Shown here: positions 709-46,751 of the stretch, piece after piece
Numbering within the stretch: the stretch's first letter is position 1
How the letters are laid out: every line of letters starts with the position of its first letter
Position numbers and translations under genes: made by a program
Notes under the pieces: generated by a model
The model's database searches: none
What the model was told of the DNA's origin: nothing
What the model saw: only the letters and a program-made list of their open reading frames with translations
Assembly: GCA_964562045.1 (NCBI GenBank)
Contig: CAZLRR010000003.1
Span: 1 to 48,831, forward strand
Length of the DNA stretch: 48,831 bases
Source: an uncultured Methanosarcinales archaeon
GTDB lineage: Archaea; Nanobdellota; Nanobdellia; Woesearchaeales; UBA583
Reading direction: 5' to 3'

Positions 709-2418
709 ATGAAACTAACAATAAATGGAACAGAGTTTGAATTTGAGCAAGGAAAAACTATTCTTGAAGTAGCTAGAGAAAATGGTTTCAAAATCCCTAC
801 ACTTTGTCATATCAAAAATTTACTAACTCCGGGAGCTTGTAGAATGTGCGTTGTTGAAGTTGAAGGTGCAAGAACTTTAATTCCTTCTTGTTCAACTCCT
901 GCTGCTGATGGAATGAAAATTAATACAAACACTAAAAGAGTTTTAGATTCTAGAAAAACAAATTATCAATTTTTAATGGCATCTCACCCAGATTGTTTAT
1001 CTTGTGGGAAAAATAATAAATGTGAGCTGCAAAAAATTGGAAGTAATTTAGGAATTACAGAAAGAATTTTTGAGAAAAATATTGAAAGAAAAGTTGATGA
1101 CTCTGCGCCCGCATATATTCGTAATAATGACAAATGTGTTTTATGTCAAAGATGCGTGAATATTTGTGATAAAATTGTTGGAGTTTCAACTCTTGGTTTA
1201 ATTGGGAGAGGACATGAAACAAAAATTGGAAATGCATTTGACAAATCAATTATGGACTCGATTTGTATTGAATGTGGACAGTGTGTTCTTCATTGCCCAA
1301 CAGGTGCTCTTTTAGAGAAAAGAAACATAGATGATGTTGTAAAAGAAATCTCAAATCCGGAAAAATTTGTTGTAGTTCAAACAGCCCCAGCAGTTCGTGC
1401 AGCACTTGGTGAAGAGTTTGGAATGAGCGCAGGAAGTTTAGTTACTGGAAAAATGGTTGAAGCTCTAAAAAGATTAGGTTTTGATAGAGTACTCGATACA
1501 ACTTTTGGAGCTGATTTAACTATTATGGAAGAAGGGTTTGAACTTCTTGAACGAATTGAAAATGGAGGAACTTTGCCACAATTTACTTCATGCTGTCCGG
1601 CATGGGTTAAATTTGTAGAAGGATTTTACCCTGAGATGATTCCTCACCTTTCAACTTCAAAAAGTCCACATCAAATGCTCGGAGCGATGATAAAAGCGCA
1701 TTATGCTCAAAAATATGGAGTAGAAGCAAAAAATATCGTGAATGTTTCAATTATGCCTTGTACTGCAAAAAAATTCGAATCACAACGAAATGAAATGAAT
1801 GCAACAGATGGACTTTTAGATATAGATTATGTTTTAACTACTAGAGAACTTGGCCAAATGATTAAAGAAGTAGGACTTGATTTTGTAAATTTGCCAGAGA
1901 GTAATTTTGACCCACTCGGAGAAGGAACTGGTGCAGGAGATATTTTTGGAGCAACTGGAGGAGTTATGGAGGCAGCTCTTCGTACAGCATACGAAGTTAA
2001 AACTGGTAAGAAACTTGACAAACTAGAATTTGACCAAATCAGAGGAAACAAAAAAGTTAAAGAAGGAAAAATCTGGTTTGGAGAAAAGGAAGTTCGGTTT
2101 TTAGTTATTGCAACTCCAAAAGAAGCAATTCCCTACATTGAACAAATTAAGAAGGGTGAATCACCATATCAATTTATTGAGGTTATGACTTGTCCAGGTG
2201 GTTGTATTGGTGGTGGTGGACAGCCAATCCCAACTAATGAAGAAATTGTTGAAAAACGAATGCAAGGACTCTATAACTCGGATGCTTCAAAGGTTTTACG
2301 TAGAAGTTATGAAAATCCAGTTATTAAAGCTTTATACGATGAGTTTCTTGGAACTCCATTATCGGAAAAAGCTGAGAAGTATTTACATACAAGTTATGTG
2401 AAGAGGAAGGAGTATTAA
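709..2418 (+). CDS. hydA: [FeFe]-hydrogenase catalytic subunit, M3 (CpI-like) architecture
   Basis: 569-aa ORF with SD-like AAGGTGA about 7 nt upstream. It has an N-terminal 2Fe-2S ferredoxin-like Cys pattern, HPDCLSCGKNNKCELQ (His-ligated 4Fe-4S) and two CxxCxxCxxxCP motifs. All three H-cluster signatures are present: FTSCCPAW, MPCTAKKFE and EVMTCPGGCIGGGGQP. Confidence 0.9.
   Translation: MKLTINGTEFEFEQGKTILEVARENGFKIPTLCHIKNLLTPGACRMCVVEVEGARTLIPSCSTPAADGMKINTNTKRVLDSRKTNYQFLMASHPDCLSCGKNNKCELQKIGSNLGITERIFEKNIERKVDDSAPAYIRNNDKCVLCQRCVNICDKIVGVSTLGLIGRGHETKIGNAFDKSIMDSICIECGQCVLHCPTGALLEKRNIDDVVKEISNPEKFVVVQTAPAVRAALGEEFGMSAGSLVTGKMVEALKRLGFDRVLDTTFGADLTIMEEGFELLERIENGGTLPQFTSCCPAWVKFVEGFYPEMIPHLSTSKSPHQMLGAMIKAHYAQKYGVEAKNIVNVSIMPCTAKKFESQRNEMNATDGLLDIDYVLTTRELGQMIKEVGLDFVNLPESNFDPLGEGTGAGDIFGATGGVMEAALRTAYEVKTGKKLDKLEFDQIRGNKKVKEGKIWFGEKEVRFLVIATPKEAIPYIEQIKKGESPYQFIEVMTCPGGCIGGGGQPIPTNEEIVEKRMQGLYNSDASKVLRRSYENPVIKALYDEFLGTPLSEKAEKYLHTSYVKRKEY
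2272..2418 (+). repeat. Left copy of a 147-bp direct repeat (the in-frame, functional 3' end of hydA)
   Basis: Aligns without gaps to 3939-4085, 128/147 identical by hand count. Positions 2281-2346 differ at only 1 site. Confidence 0.9.
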
Positions 2419-2421
2419 AAA

Positions 2422-2481
2422 AACTTTTGTCGGACAATAATGTATTTATATATACATTATTGACATACAAAAGTTTATAAA
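2422..2481 (+). promoter_or_regulatory. 24-nt imperfect inverted repeat overlapping the TATA block of abiEi (candidate AbiEi operator and/or hydA terminator)
   Basis: AACTTTTGTCGGACAATAATGTAT (2422-2445) pairs with ATACATTATTGACATACAAAAGTT (2452-2475), 9+11 paired positions around a 4-nt internal mismatch. AAGTTTATAAA (2471-2481) ends 21 nt before ATG 2503. Confidence 0.55.
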
Positions 2482-2502
2482 TAAAAGAAAACATTAATCT
2501 TT

Positions 2503-3213
2503 ATGGAGTTTTTAAAATTCATAAAAGAGTTAAAAAAATATAATTTAACAATATTTACAACAAATGATATTGTAAAAATAACAAATCAAAATAAAAATAC
2601 AGTAAATCATTTCATAAAAAATCAAGTTGAAAAACAAAACATATTTCAATTAAAAAAAGGATTTTTCTCTGTAAAACAAATAGAGAACAAATATTTATAT
2701 TCAAAAATCTTCAAAAACACATATATCTCACTTAATTCTGCATTAGAATTTTATTCTATAACAACCCAGAGATATAATAATTTAGAACTAATTTCTGAAA
2801 AAGAATTAAAATCAACCAATATTAATGATACACAAATTAACATAATTAAATCTAAACATTATTTTGGATTTGAAAAACACGAAATCGAAGATAATCAAAC
2901 AATATTTGTTGCAAATAAAGAAAAATTATTAATAGATTGTCTTTTAAACCTAAAAATGGTATATTTATCAGAGATTATGAATTTCATAAAACAAACAAAA
3001 TTTAATATTGAAAGGCTCCAAAACTACCTTAAACAAATCAATTCGGCATCATTAAACAAAAGAATAGGATATTTATTAGAATTAAATAAAATTAGTATTA
3101 ATTTAGAAATAAATAATAAATATGAACTATTGAATACAAATTTAAAAAATAATGAATTAAGAAAAAATAAAAAATGGAAGTTAATAATAAATGAGGATTT
3201 AGAAAATGAATAG
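2503..3213 (+). CDS. abiEi: AbiEi-like antitoxin / transcriptional regulator (COG5340-type)
   Basis: 236 aa. N-terminal wHTH-like segment and a TYISLNSALEFYSITTQ region typical of AbiEi. The stop overlaps the start of the next gene by 8 nt. Confidence 0.65.
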   Translation: MEFLKFIKELKKYNLTIFTTNDIVKITNQNKNTVNHFIKNQVEKQNIFQLKKGFFSVKQIENKYLYSKIFKNTYISLNSALEFYSITTQRYNNLELISEKELKSTNINDTQINIIKSKHYFGFEKHEIEDNQTIFVANKEKLLIDCLLNLKMVYLSEIMNFIKQTKFNIERLQNYLKQINSASLNKRIGYLLELNKISINLEINNKYELLNTNLKNNELRKNKKWKLIINEDLENE

Positions 3214-3943
3214 AGAGGAACTAAGCGAATATAAAGCAAAAATGGGATATAATCTTGGTCAATTAGAATTAGATTATTATCATCATAAAATACTTGAAAT
3301 ATTATATAAAAAATATAACACATTATATTTTAAAGGTGGAACTTGTATGCAAAAATGTTATGGTTTGAAAAGATTTTCAGAAGATTTAGATTTTAATTAT
3401 ATTGATATAGATATTGAAAAATTAATAGAATATATAATCAAAGAATTAGATGTTGAGACTACACTTATAAATAGATATGAAACAAAATTTGGGATTAGTT
3501 TTGTATTAAAAATTAAAGGAATATTGTACACAGGTGCAGAAAATAGTTATTGCAGAGTAAGTTTAGATTTTAGAAAAGATGATACATATTTAGATACAAA
3601 AAAACTAATTATTCGTCCAATTTATAATGATTTAGACAATTATTTTTTACTTGCATTAAATGAAGAAGAAATTTTTGCTGAAAAAGTCAGAGCAACCATT
3701 ACTAGATATAAAGCAAGAGATATATTTGATTTAGTTGAATTATTATATAAGAATGTTAAAATAAATTATGAATTGATAAATCTGAAATTAAAAACTTATG
3801 ATTTAAAATATTCTAAAGATTTGTTATTGGAGAAGGTAAAAGAAAAAAAGGAAATATATCAGAAAGAAATTGGTAAATTAACTGATGTTTATTCTTCATT
3901 TGAAGAGTCTTTCGAATTAATTAATGAGAAGTTTGAATTATAA
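3206..3943 (+). CDS. abiEii: AbiEii / DUF1814 nucleotidyltransferase toxin
   Basis: 245 aa with the hallmarks FKGGTCMQKCYG and RFSEDLDF. It is translationally coupled to abiEi. Confidence 0.8.
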   Translation: MNREELSEYKAKMGYNLGQLELDYYHHKILEILYKKYNTLYFKGGTCMQKCYGLKRFSEDLDFNYIDIDIEKLIEYIIKELDVETTLINRYETKFGISFVLKIKGILYTGAENSYCRVSLDFRKDDTYLDTKKLIIRPIYNDLDNYFLLALNEEEIFAEKVRATITRYKARDIFDLVELLYKNVKINYELINLKLKTYDLKYSKDLLLEKVKEKKEIYQKEIGKLTDVYSSFEESFELINEKFEL

Positions 3944-4085
3944 TTCTGATGCTTCAAAGGTTTTACGTAGAAGTTATGAAAATCCTGTTATTAAAGCTTT
4001 ATACGATGAGTTCTTGGGCGAGCCTTTGTCTGAGAAAGCTGAGAAGTATTTGCATACAATTTATGTTAAAAGGAAGGAGTATTAG
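3939..4085 (+). pseudogene. Displaced promoterless copy of the last 48 codons of hydA (right direct repeat)
   Basis: Translates as YNSDASKVLRRSYENPVIKALYDEFLGEPLSEKAEKYLHTIYVKRKEY*, versus ...GTPLSEKAEKYLHTSYVKRKEY* in hydA. There are 19 nt differences, only 2 of them non-synonymous. It has no upstream hydA body. Confidence 0.85.
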
Positions 4086-4597
4086 GATTTTTTAAAAGAA
4101 TAATTTAAATTTAACAATAAAAATAATATTAATCCAAATAATATATAAATTAAACAAAAAGTTAAATAAGTTGTTCCAAAATTTTCTTTAGTAATTTCAT
4201 TGTATCTACAAGTAAACTTACTTAAAATTAATATTGGTTCAACAATTAATATTAAAGTTAATAAAAGAATTCCAGTACTAACCTTATTTTTAAAAAAATC
4301 ATTACTTAAATTGTCTTTATGCTTCTGTAAGTCTAAAGCAACAGAAACTCCTTCTTTTGTTATTGTATATACATTCTGAATATTTTTCCCAGCAAACATT
4401 TTTTCATATTTAAAATATCCTAAATCTTTAAAATATGAAATAAATTGATGAAAATCTAGATCATCATAAATCTGATTTCCAATTCTATGTTTTTCTTTAT
4501 TAGTTTTATGTGAAAAAATAATTTGAGGTTTATTTTCAAATAAATATAATAATATCTCTTTCCAATTTAATACCATTGGATATTTCTTTTTTGTCAT
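4082..4597 (-). CDS. Hypothetical protein: soluble N-terminal domain (possible wHTH) plus C-terminal TM helices
   Basis: 171-aa ORF with an ATG start and hydrophobic C-terminal segments (GILLLTLILIVEPILIL, LTFCLIYILFGLILFLLL). The stop overlaps the hydA remnant. Confidence 0.55.
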   Translation of the reverse strand: MTKKKYPMVLNWKEILLYLFENKPQIIFSHKTNKEKHRIGNQIYDDLDFHQFISYFKDLGYFKYEKMFAGKNIQNVYTITKEGVSVALDLQKHKDNLSNDFFKNKVSTGILLLTLILIVEPILILSKFTCRYNEITKENFGTTYLTFCLIYILFGLILFLLLNLNYSFKKS

Positions 4598-4598
4598 T

Positions 4599-4793
4599 TT
4601 AAAATTTTAACCTCCCTAAAATACCTACAAACCCAAGTATTAAAAATAATACTGCAAAGAAGATTGCAAAACCTATTGCAAAGTTACCAAAACCTTGACT
4701 TATATTCAGGAATTTTAATGCAATTCCTGCCACAAATAGGACTCCAATTAGTCCACTACCACCCATTCCTAAAATTTTTACAGCTTGTGCCAT
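4599..4793 (-). CDS. Small two-TM membrane protein
   Basis: 64 aa, Gly/hydrophobic-rich. It lies 1 nt upstream of the next gene on the same strand (operon-like). Confidence 0.5.
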   Translation of the reverse strand: MAQAVKILGMGGSGLIGVLFVAGIALKFLNISQGFGNFAIGFAIFFAVLFLILGFVGILGRLKF

Positions 4794-4966
4794 ATAATAA
4801 AAAATAATTATAAGTATATAAAATTTTGCTTTTTATCGGAAATTTAGAGAAACCCTCCGTTCAAACCACCCATATCTCTAAAAAACATAAAACTTCTATT
4901 ATAAAGTAGCTTTGTCTCGAAATAATTAAGACAAATTTATAAATACTGAACTCTTAGTATTTATTT

Positions 4967-6001
4967 ATGACACAATCAAGAGAAATCTTGAGTAATATCG
5001 TAAAAGTTCTATCGGGACAAGAAAAAAATATTCTTGAAATAGCAAAAGAAACAAATATTGGTTGGGAAACTGCAAAATTAAACTTAGAAAAATTAGAAGA
5101 TTTAGGATTAGTAATTAAAACTGAAAAAGGAAAATATTTTGCCATTTCAAAAAAAAATCATAAAACATATTTCAAATTACCTATTAAAGAAGATATAATT
5201 AAAAAAGTTGAATCCTATTATGGACAAATAGTTAAATTGTGGGAAAAACTATACAATCAAAAACCTTCAAAACTTCAAATAACAAAAGTTTTAGCAGAAT
5301 TAAACAAAAATAAAAATTTAGAACTTCCTTTTGGTTGGTATCTCTATGGGCAATGCTGTGCAGTCATTTATAATGAAAAATTAGACTATGTCCCAAATTC
5401 AGATTACGAAAAAGAATTACTCCAAATCATACCAAAATATCTAAATAATCCAATCAAAAAACATTATGAAACATTCCCTAAAGATTCATATAATTTAAAA
5501 CAAGAAATCTTCGCACAACTCTGGAATCTTCAAGATTTGAGAAATACTAAACTTTTTGAAAAAGTTAAAGAATTTATGAAAGCCATTCTTTTAGATAAAG
5601 AAAAAATTTCGGATGATGCCCTAGATTACACAACAGAATTACTTTCTATTCTATATGAGTTAAAAGCAAATAACATTGAAATAACAGAAGAAATAAAGGA
5701 CCAAATAGATACATCTTTTAAAGAAATATGGAAACTTATAGGTTATGATTACTTTAAAGAAAGTTTTGCAGAGACAATAGATAAAAACATCTTGGATGCT
5801 TGTTTCAATAATGATAAAGAAAAACAAAAAGAAGAAATTATTATGCAATTATCTATGTTACAATCATATATAGAAAACTTAGAAATAAAAGATTCTCCAT
5901 TTGAAAAATTAAAAGAAAAAATAAACAATCCAGAAATAGATAAAAAAAATACAAATTTAAAATCTGAAAACGAAAAGCTATTCAATGATTTTGGCTTATA
6001 A
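4967..6001 (+). CDS. Hypothetical protein with an N-terminal wHTH
   Basis: 344 aa. ILEIAKETNIGWETAKLNLEKLEDLGLVIK resembles a winged helix. A TATA block (4933-4943) lies 23 nt upstream of the ATG. Confidence 0.65.
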   Translation: MTQSREILSNIVKVLSGQEKNILEIAKETNIGWETAKLNLEKLEDLGLVIKTEKGKYFAISKKNHKTYFKLPIKEDIIKKVESYYGQIVKLWEKLYNQKPSKLQITKVLAELNKNKNLELPFGWYLYGQCCAVIYNEKLDYVPNSDYEKELLQIIPKYLNNPIKKHYETFPKDSYNLKQEIFAQLWNLQDLRNTKLFEKVKEFMKAILLDKEKISDDALDYTTELLSILYELKANNIEITEEIKDQIDTSFKEIWKLIGYDYFKESFAETIDKNILDACFNNDKEKQKEEIIMQLSMLQSYIENLEIKDSPFEKLKEKINNPEIDKKNTNLKSENEKLFNDFGL

Positions 6002-6395
6002 TTTCTTCAGGCAAAGAAATTGGAATCTGAGTTTCAATTTTCAAAAAATGTTTTAAATTTCTTGTAACAATACTTTCTGCACCGGACTTTTCCGCTAAAA
6101 CAACATGCAATGCATCATCAGCATCACCTTTGGAAAGATTTTTTGCTTTTATCAGATCTTCTTCATCGTGAATAACTTTAATAATTTTGGGTTTTAATAA
6201 AGAAAAAATTCCCCTGTTTGGAGTTATATGATTAGATAACTCTTTCAAAGTCCAAGAAGATATAATAATATGATGTTTACAGGAAATTGCTTGTAAAAAT
6301 AAAGAATTTGCAGAATTAGACAAATCCCTATTACTCAGATTTTTTCTATCCAAAATTGCATCCAAAAATATGTTTGTATCCAAATAAAGCTTCAT
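5982..6395 (-). CDS. PIN-domain nuclease (VapC-like), with no adjacent antitoxin gene
   Basis: Motifs MKLYLDTNIFLDA, TLKEL and DADDALHVVLAEKSGAESIVTRN. I moved the start from TTG 6473 to ATG 6395, which lies 22 nt downstream of a TATA block. The last acidic position appears to be Asn. Confidence 0.7.
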   Translation of the reverse strand: MKLYLDTNIFLDAILDRKNLSNRDLSNSANSLFLQAISCKHHIIISSWTLKELSNHITPNRGIFSLLKPKIIKVIHDEEDLIKAKNLSKGDADDALHVVLAEKSGAESIVTRNLKHFLKIETQIPISLPEEIISQNH

Positions 6396-6417
6396 AATTA
6401 TTTTTTGAGAAATTTGG

Positions 6418-6448
6418 TTTAAAAAACTATCTGATGAAGTGAGTAGAA
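6418..6448 (-). promoter_or_regulatory. Upstream element TTCTACTCACTTCAT + 5 nt + AGTTTTTTAAA (promoter of the PIN gene)
   Basis: On the minus strand the 15-mer is at 6434-6448 and the BRE/TATA block at 6418-6428, followed by a 22-nt spacer to ATG 6395. This is one of four copies. Confidence 0.7.
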
Positions 6449-6545
6449 TTTTATAGTCCATTATTAAGTTCAATATCCTTCAAACTTTTCTTACAAAAGT
6501 TTCATAAAACAAAATTTTATAAAACTAAATTTCTTTTCCATTATT

Positions 6546-7436
6546 ATGACATTCGTAAAATACCCAAAAATAAAAAGGCTTGATGATAAAGAAAATCAAA
6601 ATCTATTAAATGAAAAAGATCTAATAATCACAGAAAAACTAGATGGCTCTAACCTTTGCATTTGGAAAGAAAACCAAAAAATAAAAATTGCTAAAAGAAC
6701 CTCAGAAATTGAATTTACAGATAAACAATTTATGCCTTTTTGTAGCTGGGTAAAAAAACAAAAATGGGAATTTTTAGAAGACAATATTTACATATATGGA
6801 GAATGTTTAATAGGAAAAGAAACACAAACAGGAAAAATCACTCCGATAGGCAGAATAACATACAAAAATCTAGAATATTTTGTAATCTTTGACATATACA
6901 ATGGAAATTCAAAAAGATGGTTAAAACCTAAATCAAAAGAATGGAATGAAATATTTAAAAAATTTAAAGAAACAAATAATTCGCAGCTAAATCAAGTACC
7001 AATACTTGAAGAAAATATTTCAATAAATAATGAAGAAGAATTGAACAAACACTTAAAAAAATCAAACTGGTGCAAAGATTCAAACATTGAAGGAATAGTA
7101 ATAAAAAAATATTTTGAAAATGGAAAAATCCAATTTGCAAAATTAGTCACAAAAGAATTCAAAGAAGTAATAAAAAGAAAACCTAACCCAAAAGGAAACA
7201 AAATAGAAGAAATTGCAAAATCTGTAATTACAAAAGCAAGAATAGAAAAAATATGTAAAAAAGAAAACATAAATTGTGAGAAAGATTTTGGAAAACTAAT
7301 CAAAGAAACAATAAAAGATGTTTTTGACGAAGAAGAATCCTATCTACAAGAATTATCTTGGAAACTTTTCAAAAAAGAATTTGGTTCAATCCTGCCCAAA
7401 ATCATTAAAGAAACATACAAAGAATCTAAAGTTTAA
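6546..7436 (+). CDS. ATP-dependent RNA ligase, Rnl2/PF09414-like
   Basis: Nucleotidyltransferase motifs occur in order: TEKLDGSN (I), FVIFDIY (III), EGIVIKK (IV), FAKLVTKEFK (V). Confidence 0.75.
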   Translation: MTFVKYPKIKRLDDKENQNLLNEKDLIITEKLDGSNLCIWKENQKIKIAKRTSEIEFTDKQFMPFCSWVKKQKWEFLEDNIYIYGECLIGKETQTGKITPIGRITYKNLEYFVIFDIYNGNSKRWLKPKSKEWNEIFKKFKETNNSQLNQVPILEENISINNEEELNKHLKKSNWCKDSNIEGIVIKKYFENGKIQFAKLVTKEFKEVIKRKPNPKGNKIEEIAKSVITKARIEKICKKENINCEKDFGKLIKETIKDVFDEEESYLQELSWKLFKKEFGSILPKIIKETYKESKV

Positions 7437-12396: not shown

Positions 12397-13434
12397 ATGA
12401 AAAACTATGTTATAGAAAAACAAGTAAAATCCCCAGAAGAAATTATTAAAGAATTACCTCTCTCAAAAGAATTAGAACAGAAAATAAAAAAAGATATTCA
12501 AGAAATAAAAAAAATCATTGATGGAAAAGATGATAGGAAAATTTTAATTATTGGACCTTGTAGTGCATGGCCAGATTCGGCAGTTATTGAATATGCTAAA
12601 AAACTTAAAAAAATTGAAGAAAAAGTTTCAAACAAAATCAAGATAATTATGAGAATTTATACACAAAAACCTAGAACAAATCTTGGTTGGACTGGACCCG
12701 CAAATCAACCAGACCCAGTAAAACCTGCCAATATTGAGAAAGGAATAATTTATTGTCGTAAGATGATGCTTGAAGTTTTAAAAATCGGACTTCCTATTGC
12801 TGATGAAGCACTTTTCACTCACAATGAAGGATATTTTCAAGACATTCTTTGTTGGCAAGCAATCGGTGCAAGATCAACAGAAGATCAAGAACACAGAATT
12901 TACGCCTCAATGCAAAATGTCCCAGTCGGAATAAAAAACCCAACTTCTGGAGATATGAAAATTGCAATCAACTCCATAGTTGCTGCAAAAAATCCACATA
13001 CTTTTCTTCTAAATGGAAAACAAATTAGAACTTTGGGCAATCCTCACGCCCATTTAGTTTTAAGAGGAGGAGCAGGAAAATCAAATATTATGCACAACGA
13101 TTTAATAGAAACAATTTCAAAATTAAAAGAAATAAACTCAAACTCAATAATCATAGACTTATCTCACGATAATTCAATAGACCCCGCAACATGTAAAAAA
13201 GACCCGCTATTTCAACCTCAAGCACTCGAAGGAGTTTTACATAACATGAAACTCGAACCTGAAATTAAAAAACATGTAGTAGGTTTTATGGTTGAGAGTT
13301 TTATCAAAACTGGAAGACAAGACATTTCAGACCAGATGGATTTAGAAGGTCTCTCAATTACTGATGCTTGTATTGGGTGGGAGAAGACTCAGGCTTTGAT
13401 TTTTGAACTATTTTCTGCGCTTCAAACTGTTTAG
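12397..13434 (+). CDS. aroG: 3-deoxy-7-phosphoheptulonate (DAHP) synthase, class I (bacterial AroF/G/H type)
   Basis: Motifs IIGPCS, YTQKPRTNLGWTGP (cf. KPRT..GWKG) and LSITDACIGWE. Confidence 0.85.
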   Translation: MKNYVIEKQVKSPEEIIKELPLSKELEQKIKKDIQEIKKIIDGKDDRKILIIGPCSAWPDSAVIEYAKKLKKIEEKVSNKIKIIMRIYTQKPRTNLGWTGPANQPDPVKPANIEKGIIYCRKMMLEVLKIGLPIADEALFTHNEGYFQDILCWQAIGARSTEDQEHRIYASMQNVPVGIKNPTSGDMKIAINSIVAAKNPHTFLLNGKQIRTLGNPHAHLVLRGGAGKSNIMHNDLIETISKLKEINSNSIIIDLSHDNSIDPATCKKDPLFQPQALEGVLHNMKLEPEIKKHVVGFMVESFIKTGRQDISDQMDLEGLSITDACIGWEKTQALIFELFSALQTV

Positions 13435-14041
13435 ATTGCTCATAATTTAAAACATGTTTTCTAGGCATTTTTTCCACAATACCTATATACTTCAAATATG
13501 TCTCATTAACATCCCTTCCTCTCTCATCTTTACTTAATTCATACTTCTGAATAACTTCTTCTCCACCAATTTCAACTTTTCGATATAAAACTGATTCATA
13601 AACACCACCTGAATTCTCTTCTGAAACAAACATATAACTTTCATCTGGCACCCGAATAGACTTTCTCTGATACAAAGTTAGTTCACTCGTAATTCCATAA
13701 ACCAGCCCCCCAACAATCCCAATAATAGCCAAATTCTCCCAGTCAAAAACCATTCCAACCAAAGTTTCCTTTCTTTTTCTTCTTGCTTCTTCTTTTCTAA
13801 GTTTTGCCTCTAATAGCTCCCTTTCCTTAGCCTCTCTCTCCTCGGCAAGTTTTCTTTCCCTTTCTTCAATTTCTCTTTTCCTTGCTTGAGCCTTTCTTTC
13901 CATCTCTTCTTTATTCTTTCTTACCTTCTCCTCGTACTCCCTTTTTTTTCTTTGATGTTCTAAAAATCTTTCTCTTTTTCGATTCATATTTCTAAATTCT
14001 TCATCTTTCTTCCTTCTTGTTCTTGTAGTATCAAAATCCAT
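13358..14041 (-). CDS. Hypothetical single-pass membrane protein with an Arg/Lys/Glu-rich N-terminal coiled coil
   Basis: 227 aa with a TM helix (LAIIGIVGGLVYGI). The 3' end overlaps aroG by 77 nt, convergently. Confidence 0.55.
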   Translation of the reverse strand: MDFDTTRTRRKKDEEFRNMNRKRERFLEHQRKKREYEEKVRKNKEEMERKAQARKREIEERERKLAEEREAKERELLEAKLRKEEARRKRKETLVGMVFDWENLAIIGIVGGLVYGITSELTLYQRKSIRVPDESYMFVSEENSGGVYESVLYRKVEIGGEEVIQKYELSKDERGRDVNETYLKYIGIVEKMPRKHVLNYEQSKQFEAQKIVQKSKPESSPTQYKHQ

Positions 14042-18597: not shown

Positions 18598-21500
18598 TTA
18601 TTCTCTCTTCTCTGACCATGCAAAATAACCAAGCAGCATTCCCAAAGTTAAAAGAGCTGAAACAAATCCTCCGAAAGGATACTCCGAAGATGGAGTTGAA
18701 GAAGAACTTCCTGTGCTATCCCCACCGCCACTTGGAGGTTCAGCAGCCATACCCAAAATAGGGACAGAATCCGTAATAACATTATTGTATCCGTTTGAAT
18801 CACAGATCGTATAAATAATACCCTCATCTACAACAGTGTGATTTTGAGTAGAATTAGAACAAATATGATCTCCCCAACGATTTCCCACCTCTCCACCAGA
18901 AAGCATCACATCAGGATCGAAATTTACAACATCTGTCTGGCTCACTTTTGTTCCATCAGGAATAGAATTTCCATACATCAATACACTCTTCAATCTAAAT
19001 AAATAAATATCATCTGTAATATTATTATTTCTAATTACAGCAGATTTATTATAAGCATTTGAACTTGAGTACAAATAAATATCCCTTACCGAAGAACTCA
19101 AAAATGTAATATTACTAATCTCAACATCCAGCTTATTTGCAGAAGTTGAATAATAGTAAACTCCATTACTAAAATCATTTATAACTCCATTTCTAATGCT
19201 TATGTTTTCAATCGGCACGCTATTTTGTATCTCTACTCCATTATAAGAACCTCCTCCGTTCATAGTATATCCTCCAAGATCTAAAATTAGATTGCTTTGA
19301 TAAAAATTAAAACAATCATTTGAACAAGTTTGATCCTGTGTTAATCTCAAAGTTAAAGGGTTAGAGAGAACATTGTTCTGAATAAGAGAGAGAGGAGTGT
19401 TTCCAAGCCCAATAACTGTATCAGGAAGTACTACGACATTACCATAAGTAGTCATATCAAACTCTCCAACATTAAATCCGCTTCCAGAATTCAATAAAAG
19501 ATGATTTATCCTGTTAAAAGTAATCTTGTCAACACTAAATCCTCCACCAGAAAAACTAACATCGTCCAGATAAGAAACATAAAGATGCTTTTGTGGATAA
19601 ACATTATACATATTCAAATCCCTATCATAACTCATACTAGAACTATAAAAATAAATATCATAGTTTGTATTTCCAGAAAAAACAATTGTAGAAATATTAA
19701 TATTTATTGGAGTACTACCAGAAGAACTTGAATACTGTATTCCCCTATCAAATCCATTGATATAACCATTTTTAATTGTTGAACCTAATACTTCTGCATT
19801 ATACACTTGCACACCATAATCACCTGAACCTCCATCTCCTGAAAGAGTTTTCTGATTCAAATCCAAAATTAAATCTGATTGATAAAGAATAAATCCATCA
19901 TAAGCAACAGAATAATCATCTCTTAACAAAATCTTCAAAGGATTTTCAAAAGTGTTATATCTAATATAAGAATTCGCCAAATCCTGAACAAGAATTTCAG
20001 TTGAAGCCTGATTAGTTACATACGTATTAAGAAGGTCAAATTCCCCAGTAATATCTATTTCAAAAGTCTTACTCAAATCAAAATTCCCCACCTGTGACAA
20101 ATCTAAACTCCCAAAATCAATATAAGTCTGGTTAATTGCGACAGTTTTTATATAATCAAATTCACTTCTCCCATCAAAATCACAATTGGTAATTGTTACA
20201 CTTTTATCATAATCCTTATTCCCCCCACTAAACCTTAAATCACGCAAATTATTTCCTACGAAATTCACATTCTCAAAACTAAAATCCCCCGAATAATTGC
20301 CTGTCTGTTCATATCTGAAAGCATACCCGAAATTAGTTATTGTTCCGTTTTTCACAACCACCGAATTTACACCACTTAAAGAACTAACAGATATTCCTGA
20401 GGAGGTAGTTCCTCCCGTCCCAGACAAAGTGTTTCCACCTAAATTGAGAATTGTATTAGAAGGATATAATGTAAAGCAACCATTTGAAGTCTGATCATTT
20501 TTCAAAACTATTTCTAAAGGGTTTGAATATAAAACTCCTGAAATTTGCGAGCTACATAAATCTCCCAAATATAATTTAAATTCAGGATTAAATAAAACAT
20601 TTTTATTTGGACCCTGAAGCGTAATGTAAGTAGTTAAATTTATAAAATTAGAGTTTGTAAAATCAGTAGTCTCAATATAATAAATATATGCTCTATTCGC
20701 ACGAAGTTCTGCCTGATTAAGAACAAAATTATGCAAGTATCTAACAAATAAATTCCCCGAGAGAGAAGTATCTCCAGTAATTGTAACTCCAGAATCAGTT
20801 CCAAGCGCACTCGGAGCAATATAAATATCTGAATCAATATTATTAGTAAAACTTATACCATCAATAGTAACTTTTGGAGCACTCTCAGACCAAACCCCAT
20901 AATTGAAATTATTAATTGTACCATTTTTAATAACTACATCTTTTGGTGAATTCGACAAAGAAAAAGCAAAATTTGTGCCAGCTCCAGAAATAGTATGCCC
21001 ACCCAAATCAATAGTTAGACCATCCTGATAGATATAGGTACATACTGAGGAATCCGAATCATCTTGAGTTAGTAAAAGATAAGGATCACTTGAATACACA
21101 TATCCGCTAAAAAGTGAATCACAAACTCTACCTGTTTTCATTTGCAGTGCAGCAGGGTAATTTACTGTTGCAGATGTTGGCCCCTGCATATGAATACCTC
21201 CTGCAGAATTTAGATTTGTAACCGCAGAAAAATCAATGGTGTCAATATAATGCAGATAAAGGCTAGACATCTCAAGATTTGACTGATCAATAGTTAGGCT
21301 ATTAAGGTAAAGAATATAAATCTGACCAGTAAAAGTACTATCTCCGGTTATTATCATACTACCACCTGAAGGCATAGTAGTCTTACTAATATAAACATCA
21401 TAACTTGCACTATTTACAATATCAACATTATCGAGAGTAAAACCTGGAGAATAATCATAACTATAGATTCCTGAATCAAAATTGTTTATGACACCGTTTT

Positions 21501-21759
21501 TTATAGTAACACCAACTCTACTGCCCCCAAATAATACTCCTCTATTCGAGCCCGGACCAGTTAACGTGTGGCCATTCAAATCCAAAATTATATTGTCAGC
21601 TAAAATACTAAAACAATTTCCAGTTGCAGTAATATCCTGAGTCACAACATAAGTTTCTCCGGCTACATTAAGATTTTGACAAGTATCTATATTCGTAAGA
21701 GCAAAAACAGAAGGAGTAAATGCAATTAGCAAAAAAATCAAAAATATCTTAAATTTCAT
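18598..21759 (-). CDS. Large surface protein with five parallel beta-helix (NosD/CASH-like) modules, a signal peptide and a C-terminal anchor
   Basis: Signal peptide MKFKIFLIFLLIAFTPSVFA. Five roughly 190-aa repeats each contain L(D/N)LxGxT(L/I/M)xGxG ... (V/I)(K/R)NG(V/T/Y)IN(N/D/G)F. A Ser/Gly/Thr linker is followed by YPFGGFVSALLTLGMLLGYFAW-SEKRE. Confidence 0.8.
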   Translation of the reverse strand: MKFKIFLIFLLIAFTPSVFALTNIDTCQNLNVAGETYVVTQDITATGNCFSILADNIILDLNGHTLTGPGSNRGVLFGGSRVGVTIKNGVINNFDSGIYSYDYSPGFTLDNVDIVNSASYDVYISKTTMPSGGSMIITGDSTFTGQIYILYLNSLTIDQSNLEMSSLYLHYIDTIDFSAVTNLNSAGGIHMQGPTSATVNYPAALQMKTGRVCDSLFSGYVYSSDPYLLLTQDDSDSSVCTYIYQDGLTIDLGGHTISGAGTNFAFSLSNSPKDVVIKNGTINNFNYGVWSESAPKVTIDGISFTNNIDSDIYIAPSALGTDSGVTITGDTSLSGNLFVRYLHNFVLNQAELRANRAYIYYIETTDFTNSNFINLTTYITLQGPNKNVLFNPEFKLYLGDLCSSQISGVLYSNPLEIVLKNDQTSNGCFTLYPSNTILNLGGNTLSGTGGTTSSGISVSSLSGVNSVVVKNGTITNFGYAFRYEQTGNYSGDFSFENVNFVGNNLRDLRFSGGNKDYDKSVTITNCDFDGRSEFDYIKTVAINQTYIDFGSLDLSQVGNFDLSKTFEIDITGEFDLLNTYVTNQASTEILVQDLANSYIRYNTFENPLKILLRDDYSVAYDGFILYQSDLILDLNQKTLSGDGGSGDYGVQVYNAEVLGSTIKNGYINGFDRGIQYSSSSGSTPININISTIVFSGNTNYDIYFYSSSMSYDRDLNMYNVYPQKHLYVSYLDDVSFSGGGFSVDKITFNRINHLLLNSGSGFNVGEFDMTTYGNVVVLPDTVIGLGNTPLSLIQNNVLSNPLTLRLTQDQTCSNDCFNFYQSNLILDLGGYTMNGGGSYNGVEIQNSVPIENISIRNGVINDFSNGVYYYSTSANKLDVEISNITFLSSSVRDIYLYSSSNAYNKSAVIRNNNITDDIYLFRLKSVLMYGNSIPDGTKVSQTDVVNFDPDVMLSGGEVGNRWGDHICSNSTQNHTVVDEGIIYTICDSNGYNNVITDSVPILGMAAEPPSGGGDSTGSSSSTPSSEYPFGGFVSALLTLGMLLGYFAWSEKRE

Positions 21760-38124: not shown

Positions 38125-41100
38125 CTAAACTACTTTTCTCCTACCTCTTCTAACTACAAGAAGAACAATAAGAGCACCAAGCAATGCAAGAAATATAATT
38201 ACTCCAACGGTTGCTGCAGTATTATTCTCCTCAACCCTTTCAACTTCTACATTAGTCTCAGGCGAATCGGTTTGAGTAACAATACTCAAATCCGAAATTT
38301 CTTTAATTGCAGAATGTTTCAATCCACTAATTACATAATAATCTCCATCACTCTGACACACATAATTACCTGAACTTTCTCCATTACATTCTATTAAATA
38401 TTCCTCCTCACCAGTACAATCACCCGAAAATTCAGACAATTCTCGAATCTCCATATCTTTTACACAAACATATTCGGAAAAATACATTCTTGGAATTCTA
38501 ATGGTTTTTGTTTCATTTTCCAGTTCAAGATTACTTACTACAACCGTATTTAAGTCTTCATAATACTCAACAACTGCAGCAGAATAATCATTCGTAAGAT
38601 TTTCATCTTCTAAAAACTGTACTGAAACTTTTGGATTAGGACTTCTAATCTCTACTTTATTCTTTCCATAAACTCCAGATTTTGAAACAACATAATTTTC
38701 TGCTTCAAAAACGATAACTTCTCTCAAGAAAGAACCTTCTAAATCCTCTTCAGAATCAATATTGTCAATAAGGGATATATCAACACCAGAGGAATTTTCA
38801 TCAGTGGCATTTGACAGAGAAGTCACTCCCAATTGTTCTGCAGTATTACGTGAAGAAGAACTCCTAGAACTACTTCCTCCTCCACCACCAGAGGAACCAC
38901 CACCAGAGGAACCACCACCTGATGAGTCACCACCTGATGAGTCACCACCCGAAGATCTAATAATTTCAAAACTTCTAGCTTCAAGTGATTCAGTTACATT
39001 AGAATTTTTACCATGTAAACTATAATTATATTCACCTAAAGGCAAACTCATTGTAGTGACCAAACTATTTGCTTTAGCATCATACAAACTCTTAATTTCA
39101 TTTGAATCCATAGCATGATCCAATAAAACTACTTCATCCATTGAACCATTATATCTTCCCAAAGAAGATGTAGCATAAGAACCTAGATATATCATATCAC
39201 TATGATTCTCTTTATCTTCTAAAGGACCAAAATTCGCCTCAACATCATCTTCCAAAACACCATTATAGTAAAGTTTTAATCTTTTACCATCATATGTTGC
39301 AGCAATATGTTGCCATTCTTCTGTTTTCAACTCACTTGAAAATATCGCCTCAGCAGTATCATTTTCAGTATTACCTAACAATGTAATTCCTGGACCACCT
39401 TCATTTTTAGAAGTATTCCCTAAGAAATAAGTTCCTAAAGAATCCGAATGACCAGTAATTAAACCATAACCATGTTCTCCTGAAAGAGAATCAGGGTTAA
39501 TCCACATAGCAATAGTGAAATACTCAGCTTTTGAATCGGGATCCAAACGATGATAACTATTAACACCATTATACTTTACATATTGTCCAGAAATTCCATC
39601 AACGTCTGAAAATACTACATGTTCACCACCAGATACATCTGTTGTAGCACCATCAAATACGTCAACTAAATTGTTTCCCGCCCTATTCTCAACATCAAAC
39701 CAAAACTCACTAAAGTTATGATGCTCTCCATCAATAACAGCAAACAAATATGCACTACCATTAAGACTACTATTTAAACTTCCCTTTAATGGAGCATTAC
39801 TATACTCTCCACCATTAGTTGCACTTCCAGATCCATATTTAAGACCTAAAGGTCCCAAAGGAGTTTCATTGTCATCTCCATTATCATCTCCATTATCATC
39901 TCCATTATCGTCATCATCTCCATTATCATCATCATTTCCGTCATCATCATCATTTCCGTCATCATCATCATTTCCGTCATCATCTCCACCAGAATTAACT
40001 CTCGAAAACTTAAAAGTATCTAAAACTGTTAAACCTCCATCATCAGAAGTATCAACAACAATTTTAGGTTCCTGTCCGGCAGAAAACTCATATCTACCTA
40101 AATCAACCCATTGTCCTGCATTTTCATTCTGATTAATATAAACATCATCACTACCACCTTTATGATGGATAGTCACACGAAGATTATTAGCTAAATTTCC
40201 TTCAGAACTTGAAGGGTACCACATAAACACATCCATTTCAGCATCTTCTACAAAATATGGTGCCACCACATACTTTTCAAAAGAGCCCTCAGATGCATAA
40301 TAACTATGGAATGCACCATTAATATTTGGAGAGGTAAATGAATAATCAATTACATAATCACCGCCATGGTATTGAGCATTAATCGTGTCCCTAACATTAA
40401 TTTGAATGACTTCTGAAATATCAAATTCACTTCTTGGATTATTAGACAATCTCTGATTAAACATCCAATCCCACACTTCAGGATTAGAATATGCTCTCTC
40501 CCACTCATGACCTAAATCATTATACAACGTAATCCTTAAAGGAGAATCTTCACCCTCAGAAGGAACATTAATACCTTCAGTCCAGACCCAATCATTCCCA
40601 ACATCTAAATAAGCATTCATATGAGTACTCGCAGGATTTCCTTGAGAACCCGAAAATGTACCTGGATACCCTTCATCTAAACTTGAATATGAGTCTCCAT
40701 TTGGCATCAAATTTGCAATACTATTAAAATATAATTTTGAATTTTCACTATCAATAATATCATCTGGTTGATTATGGTGTGCCCAAATAGGCATATTAAC
40801 TAAAACAGAATCCATATAACCATCACCAATATATTGACTTGAAATTGGCAGATTACATGCGATAGGCATATAGTTTCCAGAAACCAAAGCATAACCTGTT
40901 TGTCCTCCGTAACTATAACCAGACACATAAATTCTATCTCTATCAATATTATATCTTCTCATAACATTATTAACTACTCTACCAACCTCAATTTGAACGC
41001 TGTTATCATTATAATTTTCAGAAACCGAAATCTGCGGAGAGATAATAATAGCTCTTTCATCTCCATCAAAATTAACAATCTCGTCTCTTTCATTTACAAT

Positions 41101-41382
41101 CAAATAAAAAGGCCCATTAATTGACCTAGAACCATTAACTAAACCTAACGATTCCAAACTTCCATCACCCCGCTCATCTACTCCCGAAAAATGAATAAGC
41201 AAAGGAATAGATTCATTATTATAATTTTCTGGAACATACTCAACAAAACCTAAATTAACATTCTCTACTGTCCCAGCAGGATAACTTGTAATTAATGAAG
41301 GATTATTCGAAAATACTACTGAAATAAAAAATATAAAAAATCCCACACTAACAATTTTTTTAATAACTTGTGTAACACTCAT
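38125..41382 (-). CDS. Large secreted/anchored protein: alpha/beta-hydrolase (esterase-like) + Asp/Gly/Asn tract + LamG/ConA-like lectin + Gly/Ser linker + C-terminal TM
   Basis: N-terminal hydrophobic leader, nucleophile elbow SGYSYGGQ, and FTIAMWINPDS ... HIAATYDGKRLKLYYNGV ... GSMDEVVLL (LamG-like). C-terminus is VGVIIFLALLGALIVLLVVRRGRRK. Confidence 0.8.
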   Translation of the reverse strand: MSVTQVIKKIVSVGFFIFFISVVFSNNPSLITSYPAGTVENVNLGFVEYVPENYNNESIPLLIHFSGVDERGDGSLESLGLVNGSRSINGPFYLIVNERDEIVNFDGDERAIIISPQISVSENYNDNSVQIEVGRVVNNVMRRYNIDRDRIYVSGYSYGGQTGYALVSGNYMPIACNLPISSQYIGDGYMDSVLVNMPIWAHHNQPDDIIDSENSKLYFNSIANLMPNGDSYSSLDEGYPGTFSGSQGNPASTHMNAYLDVGNDWVWTEGINVPSEGEDSPLRITLYNDLGHEWERAYSNPEVWDWMFNQRLSNNPRSEFDISEVIQINVRDTINAQYHGGDYVIDYSFTSPNINGAFHSYYASEGSFEKYVVAPYFVEDAEMDVFMWYPSSSEGNLANNLRVTIHHKGGSDDVYINQNENAGQWVDLGRYEFSAGQEPKIVVDTSDDGGLTVLDTFKFSRVNSGGDDDGNDDDDGNDDDDGNDDDNGDDDDNGDDNGDDNGDDNETPLGPLGLKYGSGSATNGGEYSNAPLKGSLNSSLNGSAYLFAVIDGEHHNFSEFWFDVENRAGNNLVDVFDGATTDVSGGEHVVFSDVDGISGQYVKYNGVNSYHRLDPDSKAEYFTIAMWINPDSLSGEHGYGLITGHSDSLGTYFLGNTSKNEGGPGITLLGNTENDTAEAIFSSELKTEEWQHIAATYDGKRLKLYYNGVLEDDVEANFGPLEDKENHSDMIYLGSYATSSLGRYNGSMDEVVLLDHAMDSNEIKSLYDAKANSLVTTMSLPLGEYNYSLHGKNSNVTESLEARSFEIIRSSGGDSSGGDSSGGGSSGGGSSGGGGGSSSRSSSSRNTAEQLGVTSLSNATDENSSGVDISLIDNIDSEEDLEGSFLREVIVFEAENYVVSKSGVYGKNKVEIRSPNPKVSVQFLEDENLTNDYSAAVVEYYEDLNTVVVSNLELENETKTIRIPRMYFSEYVCVKDMEIRELSEFSGDCTGEEEYLIECNGESSGNYVCQSDGDYYVISGLKHSAIKEISDLSIVTQTDSPETNVEVERVEENNTAATVGVIIFLALLGALIVLLVVRRGRRKVV

Positions 41383-45218: not shown

Positions 45219-46061
45219 TCAGCTTAACTGATTATTCTTGCTAAAATGAATTTTCTTTGAATTCTCTTTTGTAACTATTTTTCTACCTGTTTGATTTTCA
45301 ATATCTCTTCTTGTATTTCCAGCAACACTTCCACCTTTTTTTGCAATAGTTTTGCTCTCTTCAAAATCTTTTGGATTCTCAACTTCTGAAAATTCTTTTG
45401 TTGTAATTTCTGCAAGCATATTTAATACTAACTCCATATTTGTCATATTATCTCTTAGATTTTCTCTTTTTAAACTTTTAAAATTCTTGTATTCTCTAAC
45501 ACTTTTACCTGACCAAGCCATAGTAATTTCGTTTGTGAGTATTGCATATTCATTAGGTTTATCAATTCCCGCCCTATTCCATTCATCAGTCAATTCTTTT
45601 CTAATATCAATTGATTTAAGTCTTTGATTTATCCATTCTTTTGAATATCCTTTTTTTGAATAATTATTCAATGCACGAGTTATAGAAATTTCTGGATCTT
45701 CAATTTCTTTAATTCTATCATCTCCAACTTGGGCAAGCCATAATTTAAATGGTTCCGCTTTCTTTGAAGGCACAGACTGAATTAGTCTTAATAATTGTTT
45801 TGTATTAGCAACATCAGTTTTGTAAAACTTTCCATCAGAGGATTGCATTTTCAGTTGGTTACAATTTGTAACCGACTGATTCCCTTCATCTAAAAGCCTT
45901 GATTTTAACACTTTCCAATAATTTCTAGCACCCTGATAATCGTTCTCTGTTAAAATTGCTATAACATCAACTATTGAAAAATACCACTCTTCTTCAATCT
46001 CATTCCATTGAACCCTTATTTTCTTATCACTAAACAATTTGATTGAATTATTTTTTGTCAT
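45219..46061 (-). CDS. dinD: Bro-N domain protein, DinD (DNA-damage-inducible protein D) family
   Basis: Bro-N pattern IKLFSDKKIRVQWNEIEEEWYFSIVDVIAIL. The C-terminal half (MTNMELVLNMLAEITTKE ... GGSVAGNTRRDIENQTG) resembles E. coli DinD as I recall it. Not searched. Confidence 0.65.
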   Translation of the reverse strand: MTKNNSIKLFSDKKIRVQWNEIEEEWYFSIVDVIAILTENDYQGARNYWKVLKSRLLDEGNQSVTNCNQLKMQSSDGKFYKTDVANTKQLLRLIQSVPSKKAEPFKLWLAQVGDDRIKEIEDPEISITRALNNYSKKGYSKEWINQRLKSIDIRKELTDEWNRAGIDKPNEYAILTNEITMAWSGKSVREYKNFKSLKRENLRDNMTNMELVLNMLAEITTKEFSEVENPKDFEESKTIAKKGGSVAGNTRRDIENQTGRKIVTKENSKKIHFSKNNQLS

Positions 46062-46083
46062 AATTATTTTTATAAAATTTACA

Positions 46084-46114
46084 TTTATAAATCTACCTAA
46101 TGAAGTGAGTAGAA
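46084..46114 (-). promoter_or_regulatory. Upstream element TTCTACTCACTTCAT + 5 nt + AGATTTATAAA (promoter of the dinD-like gene)
   Basis: On the minus strand the 15-mer is at 46100-46114 and the BRE/TATA block at 46084-46094, followed by a 22-nt spacer to ATG 46061. Confidence 0.7.
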
Positions 46115-46118
46115 AATT

Positions 46119-46751
46119 TTACTTCTTAGCATATTTCGAATAAACTTTCTTTATCGGTTTCTTGTATGTCTTTTTATATGTTGGTTTAGATGTTATTTTA
46201 TCCGTTGTTTTATTTGTTACATTAGTTGCAGTTTTAGGTTTTGAGTAAGATTTCTTAGTGGTATTTTTTACCAAATCTCCAAGAACACTCTTTTCCTGAG
46301 GCCTATTCCAAAATTTAAGTTTTTCAAAAAAGCCATATTTCTTTTTCGTTGTTTTCTCATAAACCTCAATAATGTTTTTCATAGCATCAACTCTCCCCTC
46401 TAGGTGAGATAAAATACTATCTAAAATATAATTTTTCCAATCTTTATTGAAATGATACATCGGAACAAAAAAAATACCGCATTGCTTGTAAATTCCTTTT
46501 TTGTGGTCCGCAGATTTTTTATAATTCTCATCATATTTATACATTCCAAAATATTCAATAACAATCTGATAATCTGTCAAATAAAAATCCGGATACCAAA
46601 GTTTTGTTTTATCCTCATCTTTTACAGCAATTGGAAACTCATACTCAAAATTAATTTCCTGAGCAGTTAAAAATTTTGCAATTTCAAGTTCTCCTTTACT
46701 CTTATAATTTATTCCCTTGAAAGGATATTCTCTAAATTTTTTATTTATCAT
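46119..46751 (-). CDS. PD-(D/E)xK-superfamily nuclease-like protein (Vsr/DUF559-like core) with a Lys/Thr-rich tail
   Basis: Core pattern KSKGELEIAKFL ... FEYEF ... WYPDFYL ... IVIEYFG. Confidence 0.5.
   Translation of the reverse strand: MINKKFREYPFKGINYKSKGELEIAKFLTAQEINFEYEFPIAVKDEDKTKLWYPDFYLTDYQIVIEYFGMYKYDENYKKSADHKKGIYKQCGIFFVPMYHFNKDWKNYILDSILSHLEGRVDAMKNIIEVYEKTTKKKYGFFEKLKFWNRPQEKSVLGDLVKNTTKKSYSKPKTATNVTNKTTDKITSKPTYKKTYKKPIKKVYSKYAKK

Follow-up and report, generated by a model that had tools for sequence, protein, structure and literature searches.

Islands and prophages at the 3′ ends of tRNA and tmRNA genes carry a replacement 3′ end for the gene that they enter, encode a tyrosine integrase and are usually bounded by near-identical repeats. 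Here we describe a locus of related geometry in a 48,831-nucleotide stretch of DNA (contig CAZLRR010000003.1 of assembly GCA_964562045.1, positions 1 to 48,831; hereafter the window) from a DPANN archaeon of the Nanoarchaeota/Woesearchaeota type. A two-gene AbiE toxin-antitoxin cassette lies at the 3′ end of hydA, the gene of an [FeFe] hydrogenase, between two diverged 147-bp direct repeats, which we call tail A (left) and tail B (right). As in the tRNA and tmRNA islands, the new 3′ end of the gene appears to come from the element, whose far boundary can be recognised by a partial copy displaced from the gene; unlike in those islands, the target is protein-coding and no integrase was found. 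To our knowledge, almost nothing is known about the movement of defence genes between DPANN archaea, whose genomes are tiny and hold few recognisable mobile-element genes. The locus provides a before-and-after pair, an empty and an occupied site, resolved to the base, in which a two-gene defence or addiction module has entered a conserved metabolic gene without damaging it, apparently using the gene’s own 3′ end as a landing pad.

The closest described process is the 3′-end displacement seen at Rhs and type VI secretion system (T6SS) loci. For Rhs, CdiA and T6SS effector loci, C-terminal displacement (Jackson 2009, PMC2935791, as cited in PMC5361080) is proposed to proceed by homology-facilitated illegitimate recombination (Kirchberger 2017, PMC5361080). 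There, as apparently at the hydA locus, a homology anchor lies in the conserved part of the gene, a new 3′ end arrives together with a companion module, the old end is orphaned downstream, no integrase is involved and the exchange is between related lineages. However, the new tip of those proteins is a different toxin domain, and this diversity is what the exchange is about. The terminus described here differs from the old one at only 2 of 48 residues and is thus almost synonymous; moreover, it belongs to a metabolic enzyme, comes with an AbiE module that is unrelated to the gene, and is found in a DPANN host.

Two further comparisons concern the element and its cargo. Like the streptococcal cis-mobilizable elements (CIMEs, PMC7563491), the insertion is small, consists of cargo only without recombination genes, has direct repeats at a gene’s 3′ end and preserves the reading frame. 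CIMEs are bounded by attachment (att) sites of a known integrase family and were detected in tandem with integrative and conjugative elements (ICEs) or integrative and mobilizable elements (IMEs) (PMC7563491). For the hydA insertion, neither an integrase nor a partner element nor an att family is known, and its repeats, with a length of 147 bp, lie in coding sequence and diverge as a mosaic. The AbiE systems of Streptococcus agalactiae and Lactococcus (PMC3985639 and PMC7319586) share with the present one an overlapping bicistronic operon, a DUF1814 toxin with motifs I-IV and an inverted repeat at the promoter, and the family is known to stabilise mobile DNA (same sources). Here, by contrast, the host is archaeal, and the promoter region carries a single 56-bp palindrome and a TATA-type promoter, both predicted. 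The locus is a clean but fairly ordinary example of a small defence cassette that has moved into a gene and left it intact. The processes that it combines (insertion at a 3′ end that brings a substitute terminus, and displacement of a C-terminus) are of known kinds, as is its AbiE cargo; its setting is unusual in the DPANN host, the metabolic target gene and the lack of a recombinase in the window.

Empty and occupied forms of the hydA locus

The hydA gene (709-2418, plus strand) encodes an intact group A6 [FeFe] hydrogenase of 569 aa, of which the last ~24 codons and the stop now seem to derive from inserted DNA. The protein matches NCBIfam FeFe_hydrog_A6 (NF040763) over its full length with 813.8 bits, above the curated cut-off of 765, and carries the Pfam domains Fe_hyd_lg_C (1.6e-93) and Fe_hyd_SSU (2.3e-22). 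The latter, at residues 512-566, covers profile positions 2-56 of 56, and the C-terminal small-subunit-like domain is intact.

An unoccupied form of the locus is found on L089 (ENA contig k141_569794, 1,420 bp), which holds the last 900 bp of hydA with 92% nucleotide identity to window positions 1519-2418. On L089, hydA directly abuts a homologue of a convergent 171-aa gene, the two stop codons overlapping by 4 nt, and there is no AbiE cassette. In the window, the same 4-nt stop/stop overlap (4082-4085) joins tail B (3939-4085, plus strand) to the 171-aa gene (4082-4597, minus strand). Because the geometry of L089 equals that of tail B, the order of hydA followed by the 171-aa gene is ancestral, and tail B is the native hydA terminus, displaced but still in its ancestral setting. 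From the empty site, together with the shared stop overlap, it follows that 1,667 bp, comprising one tail plus the cassette, have been inserted beside a native right junction. The inserted unit, absent from L089, is delimited by the breakpoint described below as 2346-4012 (plus strand), which is equivalent in register to 2419-4085, the repeats being spaced by 1,667 bp. An earlier note on this DNA, made from the sequence alone, had read the locus as integration or recombination into a gene’s 3′ end in which the incoming DNA supplies a replacement terminus, and had named an empty site in related genomes as the comparison to make; L089, where hydA runs straight into the 171-aa homologue, supports that reading.

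The cargo is also as that note had described it, a two-gene AbiE module, with PADLOC matches for both genes and a Pfam match for the second. The first gene, abiEi (2503-3213, plus strand), encodes a predicted antitoxin and transcriptional regulator of 236 aa (PADLOC AbiEi 5.3e-36, residues 5-234) with no Pfam or NCBIfam match. It overlaps by 8 nt the downstream abiEii on the same strand (3206-3943), forming a bicistronic operon. AbiEii is a DUF1814 nucleotidyltransferase and predicted toxin of 245 aa (Pfam AbiEii, PF08843, 5.5e-26; PADLOC AbiEii 3.5e-49, full length). Family motifs I/II (hG[G/S]..DhD with an Arg), III (K..R) and IV (+DxxD), as given in PMC3985639, can be recognised in it as GG..R..DLD at 44-62 (GG44-45, R56, D60-L-D62), KVRATITR at 160 and RDIFD at 171. 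Judged from its sequence, the cassette is an intact abiEi-abiEii operon of the type IV toxin-antitoxin/abortive-infection kind. The abiEii stop codon (3941-3943) sits within the first codons of tail B, at the coordinates already given in the earlier note.

Between the hydA stop and abiEi lies a 56-bp palindrome (2421-2476) with 28-nt arms that are 86% complementary and have no spacer; it begins shortly after the hydA stop and ends 27 bp before abiEi. As DNA it folds with -15.5 kcal/mol (z = -7.2; 0 of 200 shuffles equally good), and its right arm overlaps a TATA-like box, TTTATAAATA, at 2474-2483, ~25 nt before the abiEi ATG. Because AbiEi is reported to autoregulate via promoter inverted repeats (PMC3985639 and PMC7319586), we regard the palindrome as the probable operator of AbiEi.

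The distribution of the cassette follows the alleles of the locus. AbiE proteins are not on record in run SRR19844289 or in the metagenome-assembled genome GCA_048615555.1, samples with another allele, and are recorded only in runs with the window-type allele, as expected for an accessory cassette. Exact-protein look-ups of AbiEi and AbiEii return only the Logan unitigs L001 and L002, and a look-up of a 42-aa fragment of tail B returned only unitig L088; the same look-up found no exact record of the full hydA protein, of the 171-aa protein from its first ATG or of a 53-aa open reading frame (ORF) that contains tail B.

When the full-length hydA protein was searched for homologues, the best relative stood at 71%; among full-length hydA sequences with a name, the closest comes from Woesearchaeota. 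With the C-terminal 149 aa as query, the closest fragment stood at 75%. A scan of the reference genomes found no hydA relative above 54% identity and thus no empty site. The more distant relatives L083, L084, L090 and L091 have unrelated genes downstream of hydA, with neither AbiE nor a homologue of the 171-aa protein. No displaced tail was found in 83 other hydA loci: where a second tail match occurs, eight are the ends of full-length paralogues (~600 codons) and one, on L080, is a separate ORF. This L080 feature (13411-13512, Thermodesulfobacterium thermophilum) is the Fe_hyd_SSU-like end of a 117-codon ORF located 1.66 kb downstream of hydA, and is probably a true small-subunit gene rather than a displaced tail.

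Sequencing data reproduce the arrangement around the cassette. Unitig L001 (SRR29060565) corresponds to window positions 2289-3977 and L002 (SRR11308339) to 2368-3977, both with 100% identity, so that the junctions of the cassette at 2418/2419 and at 3938/3939 are each reproduced in two independent runs. In one of these, tail B is also seen joined to the downstream DNA (L088 of SRR29060565, window 3956-6154). The unitig ends at 2289, 3977 and 3956 are the breaks expected with k=31 at an exact repeat of 38 bp. Unitigs of k=31 are unable to link across this core, and they fit the integrated form and an empty chromosome accompanied by a 1,667-bp circle or tandem copy equally well. It could thus be argued that the real chromosome is empty and that the cassette with tail A belongs to such a circle, a tandem copy or another strain’s locus, threaded into the assembly through the 38-bp core, and the exact position of the L001 and L088 breaks (2289-3977 and from 3956) suits either topology. 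L002 moreover starts at 2368 and not at the core boundary, which implies a co-occurring variant in SRR11308339 that differs at 2367, one of the 19 sites at which the tails differ. A circle or tandem junction (tail B recombined with tail A) would produce such a variant, which could also be another strain or a chance single-nucleotide polymorphism. Against an artefact, an assembly whose final k was 41 or more would presumably have needed reads spanning 2280-2319 and 3947-3986, because the longest exact shared stretch is 38 bp. In addition, the cassette is flanked on both sides by the hydA tail in two runs, and the repeat structure and its evolutionary meaning would stand under either topology. 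We consider a misassembly of this kind very unlikely.

Divergence between the two hydA termini

Tail A (2272-2418, plus strand) forms the functional last 48 codons and TAA stop of hydA, and tail B retains 48 codons and a TAG stop, both in the hydA frame. The comparison in the earlier note was largely reproduced: the repeats align without gaps at 128 of 147 positions, each reads as an in-frame hydA end, and only 2 of the 16 codons that differ alter the amino acid (T to E, S to I). The 19 substitutions are concentrated in third codon positions (15 of 19). Random placement of 19 substitutions yields a mean of 13.2 replacement codons, and two or fewer in 0 of 50,000 trials; the ratio of non-synonymous to synonymous divergence (dN/dS) between the tails is 0.054. 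An exact 38-nt core (2281-2318 and 3948-3985) occurs twice in the window, against 0 occurrences expected from 100 shuffles. GC composition was dropped as a guide to which tail is native, as the tails are alike in this respect (32.7% and 33.3%).

The differences are distributed as a mosaic. The proximal identity block (2281-2345, plus strand), which includes the core, has a single difference between the tails in 65 positions, versus 16 in 73 in the distal part (2346-2418; Fisher p = 1.7e-4), where synonymous sites approach saturation (proportion of synonymous differences, pS, 0.75). The earlier note had counted one difference in 2281-2346, but there are two, at 2319 and 2346, and it is the block ending at 2345 that holds only one. 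Because the proximal block is near-identical and the distal one strongly diverged, a mosaic breakpoint can be placed at ~2319-2346, at or near the 3′ edge of the identity block.

A three-way comparison with L089 suggests which segments are resident. Changes private to tail A, tail B and L089 number 2, 1 and 5 in the proximal 74 bp and 10, 6 and 1 in the distal 73 bp (p = 0.0055). Of the five L089-private differences of the proximal 74 bp, the four that fall inside 2281-2345 are shared by both tails. Divergence between the window and L089 in the body of hydA is 7.3%. Distal tail B, with 7 differences from L089 in 73 positions, fits this rate (P = 0.29), whereas distal tail A, with 11 in 73, exceeds it (P = 0.017), and the 16 in 73 between the distal tails are well above it (P = 1e-4) and too many for copies born within one lineage. 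The simplest reading of these sequences is that both proximal halves are of resident type, and that the distal part of tail A (2346-2418, plus strand) is foreign hydA sequence that arrived with the cassette. Tail A carries a Thr codon (ACT, 2353-2355) that is present in no relative’s tail. Rooting with L083 as an outgroup was abandoned, as synonymous sites are saturated and uninformative.

Both tails bear the mark of purifying selection. Leaving aside the stop-codon change, the changes private to tail B comprise 5 silent and 1 replacement (P = 0.0016 under neutrality), and those private to tail A comprise 8 silent codons and 1 replacement codon, the triple substitution of GAG to ACT that creates the Thr. 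The earlier note’s proposal of purifying selection on both copies is borne out by these counts and by the dN/dS of 0.054. Its further proposal that the copies evolved in different lineages holds for the distal half, with 16 differences in 73 positions, and fails for the proximal 65 bp, which are almost identical. In the simplest reading, the divergence of tail B dates from a time when it still served as the end of a functional gene.

These patterns bear on two other accounts of the repeats. In the first, the 147-bp end of the host’s own hydA was copied at insertion, much as in a target-site duplication of unusual length, and each copy went on to accumulate its own changes where it lay. While the near-identity of the proximal 65 bp would suit such an origin, a displaced copy should drift, yet tail B shows 5 silent changes to 1 replacement (P = 0.0016); the distal parts of the tails differ by 22%, more than the 7.3% between the window and L089, although L089 has no duplication; and divergence is not uniform along the repeat (p = 1.7e-4). 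Duplication in situ is hence extremely improbable.

The second account makes AbiE a passenger that already lay downstream of hydA, with tail A native; a later import from an empty-site relative would have brought in a stretch of DNA that starts at hydA codon 522, includes tail B and reaches the 3′ portion of the 171-aa gene. Its right end would have joined near 4490 through homology, and its left end illegitimately, at the sequence TATAA just behind abiEii. The right flank is indeed variable among strains. Against L086, nucleotide identity is 58-79% to the left of ~4490 and 99-100% to the right, the samples SRR19844289 and GCA_048615555.1 behaving alike, and this sharp switch means that the variable segment spans the hydA tail into the 171-aa gene. 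L085, from a mixed-strain run, breaks at 4494, and the TATAA at the left joint provides microhomology. On the other side, two events would be needed; it is distal tail B, not tail A, that lies at the expected distance from L089; the odd derived run 2346-2355 lies in tail A; and the proximal near-identity is explained no better. The ancestral stop overlap between tail B and the 171-aa gene suits native and imported DNA alike. Taken together, these points make an import of tail B unlikely.

As to the 171-aa protein itself, it has a weak winged helix-turn-helix (wHTH) match and a hydrophobic C-terminus, and the 3′ two-thirds of its gene, the ancestral right flank of the cassette, vary among strains. 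Its homologues are P0122 (60%, on L089) and P0123 (65%, labelled ‘Nanoarchaeota archaeon’). The N-terminal ~33 aa are conserved, while the sequence encoding the hydrophobic C-terminal part is hypervariable, with 58-79% nucleotide identity to L086 and L087 and no alignable counterpart on L089.

An in-frame ATG at 3924 turns the displaced tail into the 53-aa ORF mentioned above (3924-4085), with no Shine-Dalgarno-like sequence visible upstream. This ORF scores 5.3e-19 against Fe_hyd_SSU, and a displaced fragment of 48 codons could therefore be annotated as an ‘iron hydrogenase small subunit’, a practical warning for genome annotation.

Possible routes of insertion

We lean slightly towards an insertion that was driven by homology in the hydA tail and effected by the host’s recombination, not by an integrase encoded by the element. 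In this scenario, a DNA of 1,667 bp, made up of ~73 bp of a foreign hydA 3′ end, the palindrome with the probable operator and promoter, and abiEi-abiEii, would have recombined into the last 48 codons of hydA. The functional hydrogenase gene would owe its stop and the ~24 codons before it to the incoming DNA, and the native terminus, shifted 1,667 bp downstream, would remain joined to its ancestral convergent neighbour. The anchor would be the hydA-tail sequence that the incoming DNA carried, with one exchange at ~2319-2346; the other joint would lie directly after the abiEii stop, at the TATAA shared with hydA codons 522-523. Either a Campbell-type single crossover of a small circle bearing a hydA-tail homology arm or homology-facilitated illegitimate recombination could be the route. 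Two features expected of an anchored displacement are seen: homology to the hydA tail stops at the stop codon, 2419-3938 having no counterpart in the empty site L089, and the orphaned resident 3′ end is kept downstream of the module, as tail B with its ancestral junction. Since each repeat encodes a valid C-terminus in frame, the cassette could be excised scarlessly by an exchange between the two, and the toxin-antitoxin pair would be expected to penalise its loss; this addiction effect is inferred, like the recombination route, the direction of transfer and the operator role of the palindrome.

Several observations weigh against a homology-driven insertion. L089 is the sole close comparator, and it could be empty through a secondary scarless excision or deletion. 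The hydA homology searches and relatives revealed no lineage that could be the donor, with either the sequence of tail A (GTPLSEK) or an AbiE module adjacent to hydA. The TATAA common to 2272-2276 and 3939-3943 is a 5-nt A/T match of a kind expected by chance in DNA of 20-30% GC. A simple double crossover is unable to duplicate 74 bp of the recipient, and a circle or two chromosome copies are needed; the arm of such a circle must itself be mosaic, implying earlier exchanges or later gene conversion. Finally, an integrase gene may lie beyond the 48.8-kb window or be one of the ORFs without a Pfam match. A search of metagenome contigs with a wobble-degenerate pattern of the tail gave 0 matches.

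The last of these objections leads to site-specific integration, in which the 147-bp repeats would be attL and attR, with exchange in the block of 38-65 bp, and the element would be CIME-like, a minimal or decayed form whose own integrase was lost or never existed and which is mobilised by an integrase acting in trans. The classic 3′-end pattern is present, with direct repeats, a restored gene end and an identity block inside the repeats; as in a CIME, the direct repeats bound the element at the hydA 3′ end and hydA is intact. Documented CIMEs of 1.2-13 kb carry cargo only and are flanked by att sites where protein-coding genes (fda, rpsI, rpmG, rplL) end (PMC7563491), and AbiE modules stabilise integrative elements (PMC3985639 and PMC11062541). 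However, no integrase or transposase domain, and hence no cognate integrase, was found in the scanned ORFs across the 48.8-kb window, in line with the earlier note’s statement that no integrase is present. In the 83 other hydA loci, neither an integrase-bearing related element nor a displaced tail was found, and AbiEii has no relatives in the scans of viral and Joint Genome Institute (JGI) metagenome contigs. Site-specific exchange alone also leaves unaccounted for the contrast between a resident-type arm 5′ of the core (3948-4012) and a foreign 3′ arm. We regard site-specific integration as possible, though doubtful on this evidence.

An insertion sequence or transposon was considered and rejected, with no transposase domain, no convincing terminal inverted repeats on the cassette, and a repeat that is 147 bp long and diverged rather than a short duplication. 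The cassette DNA matches no phage, and AbiEii has only ~30% identity to plasmid proteins, in haloarchaeal plasmids. GC content is 20% in 2419-3938 versus 35% in hydA; the following 3.4 kb likewise reach only 20-29%.

Should the homology-arm route be correct, small cassettes could spread in DPANN archaea without a dedicated recombinase, and events of this kind could then be looked for through the short, diverged duplications of gene ends that they leave. More speculatively, and with rather low confidence, AbiE may be a recombinase-free mobile cassette with a portable hydA terminus as its homology arm, existing as a 1.67-kb circle among related DPANN lineages, entering and leaving the hydA 3′ end by host homologous recombination alone, with the hydrogenase intact each time, and held in place by addiction. 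If so, the mosaic arm and the variant at 2367 would be traces of repeated entry and exit at varied crossover points.

Surroundings of the locus in the window

The archaeal origin of the window is evident from an S13-S4-S11-Rpb3-L13-S9 cluster of archaeal type, and a near-identical neighbour protein is labelled ‘Nanoarchaeota archaeon’ at NCBI. The hydrogenase gene is solitary, with no adjoining NuoE- or NuoF-like partner; the Woesearchaeota relative L084 has a Complex1_51K gene upstream.

To the left of hydA, and ending ~140 bp before it, is an array of clustered regularly interspaced short palindromic repeats (CRISPR) at 26-566, with eight exact 30-nt repeats (GTTCTAAATTTAGCTTATTGCTTTTGAAAT), a degenerate ninth at 537-566 and spacers of 31-37 nt. 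The window contains no cas genes, and the only matches of the spacers to the rest of it are chance ones of at most 16 nt.

To the right, a region of low GC (4967-7436) encodes a PIN-domain protein, an RNA ligase and a 344-aa wHTH protein whose N-terminus weakly resembles Csa3/CasR; it has the look of a small neighbourhood for defence or RNA repair. Two copies of a dispersed direct repeat of 64 nt, with 78% identity, occur at 6392-6455, within the 5′ end of the minus-strand PIN-domain gene, and at 46058-46121, in the intergenic gap just upstream of a minus-strand Bro-N gene. This gene (45219-46061) and one for a protein with a DUF1016 N-terminal domain (48400-48747) lie near the end of the window, in a region that may be viral or mobile DNA. 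Two long ORFs lie between these regions: one of 1053 aa (18598-21759) has no Pfam match, and one of 1085 aa (38125-41382) carries Laminin_G_3 and Golvesin_C domains and contains tandem repeats of 12/18 nt at 39854-40006.

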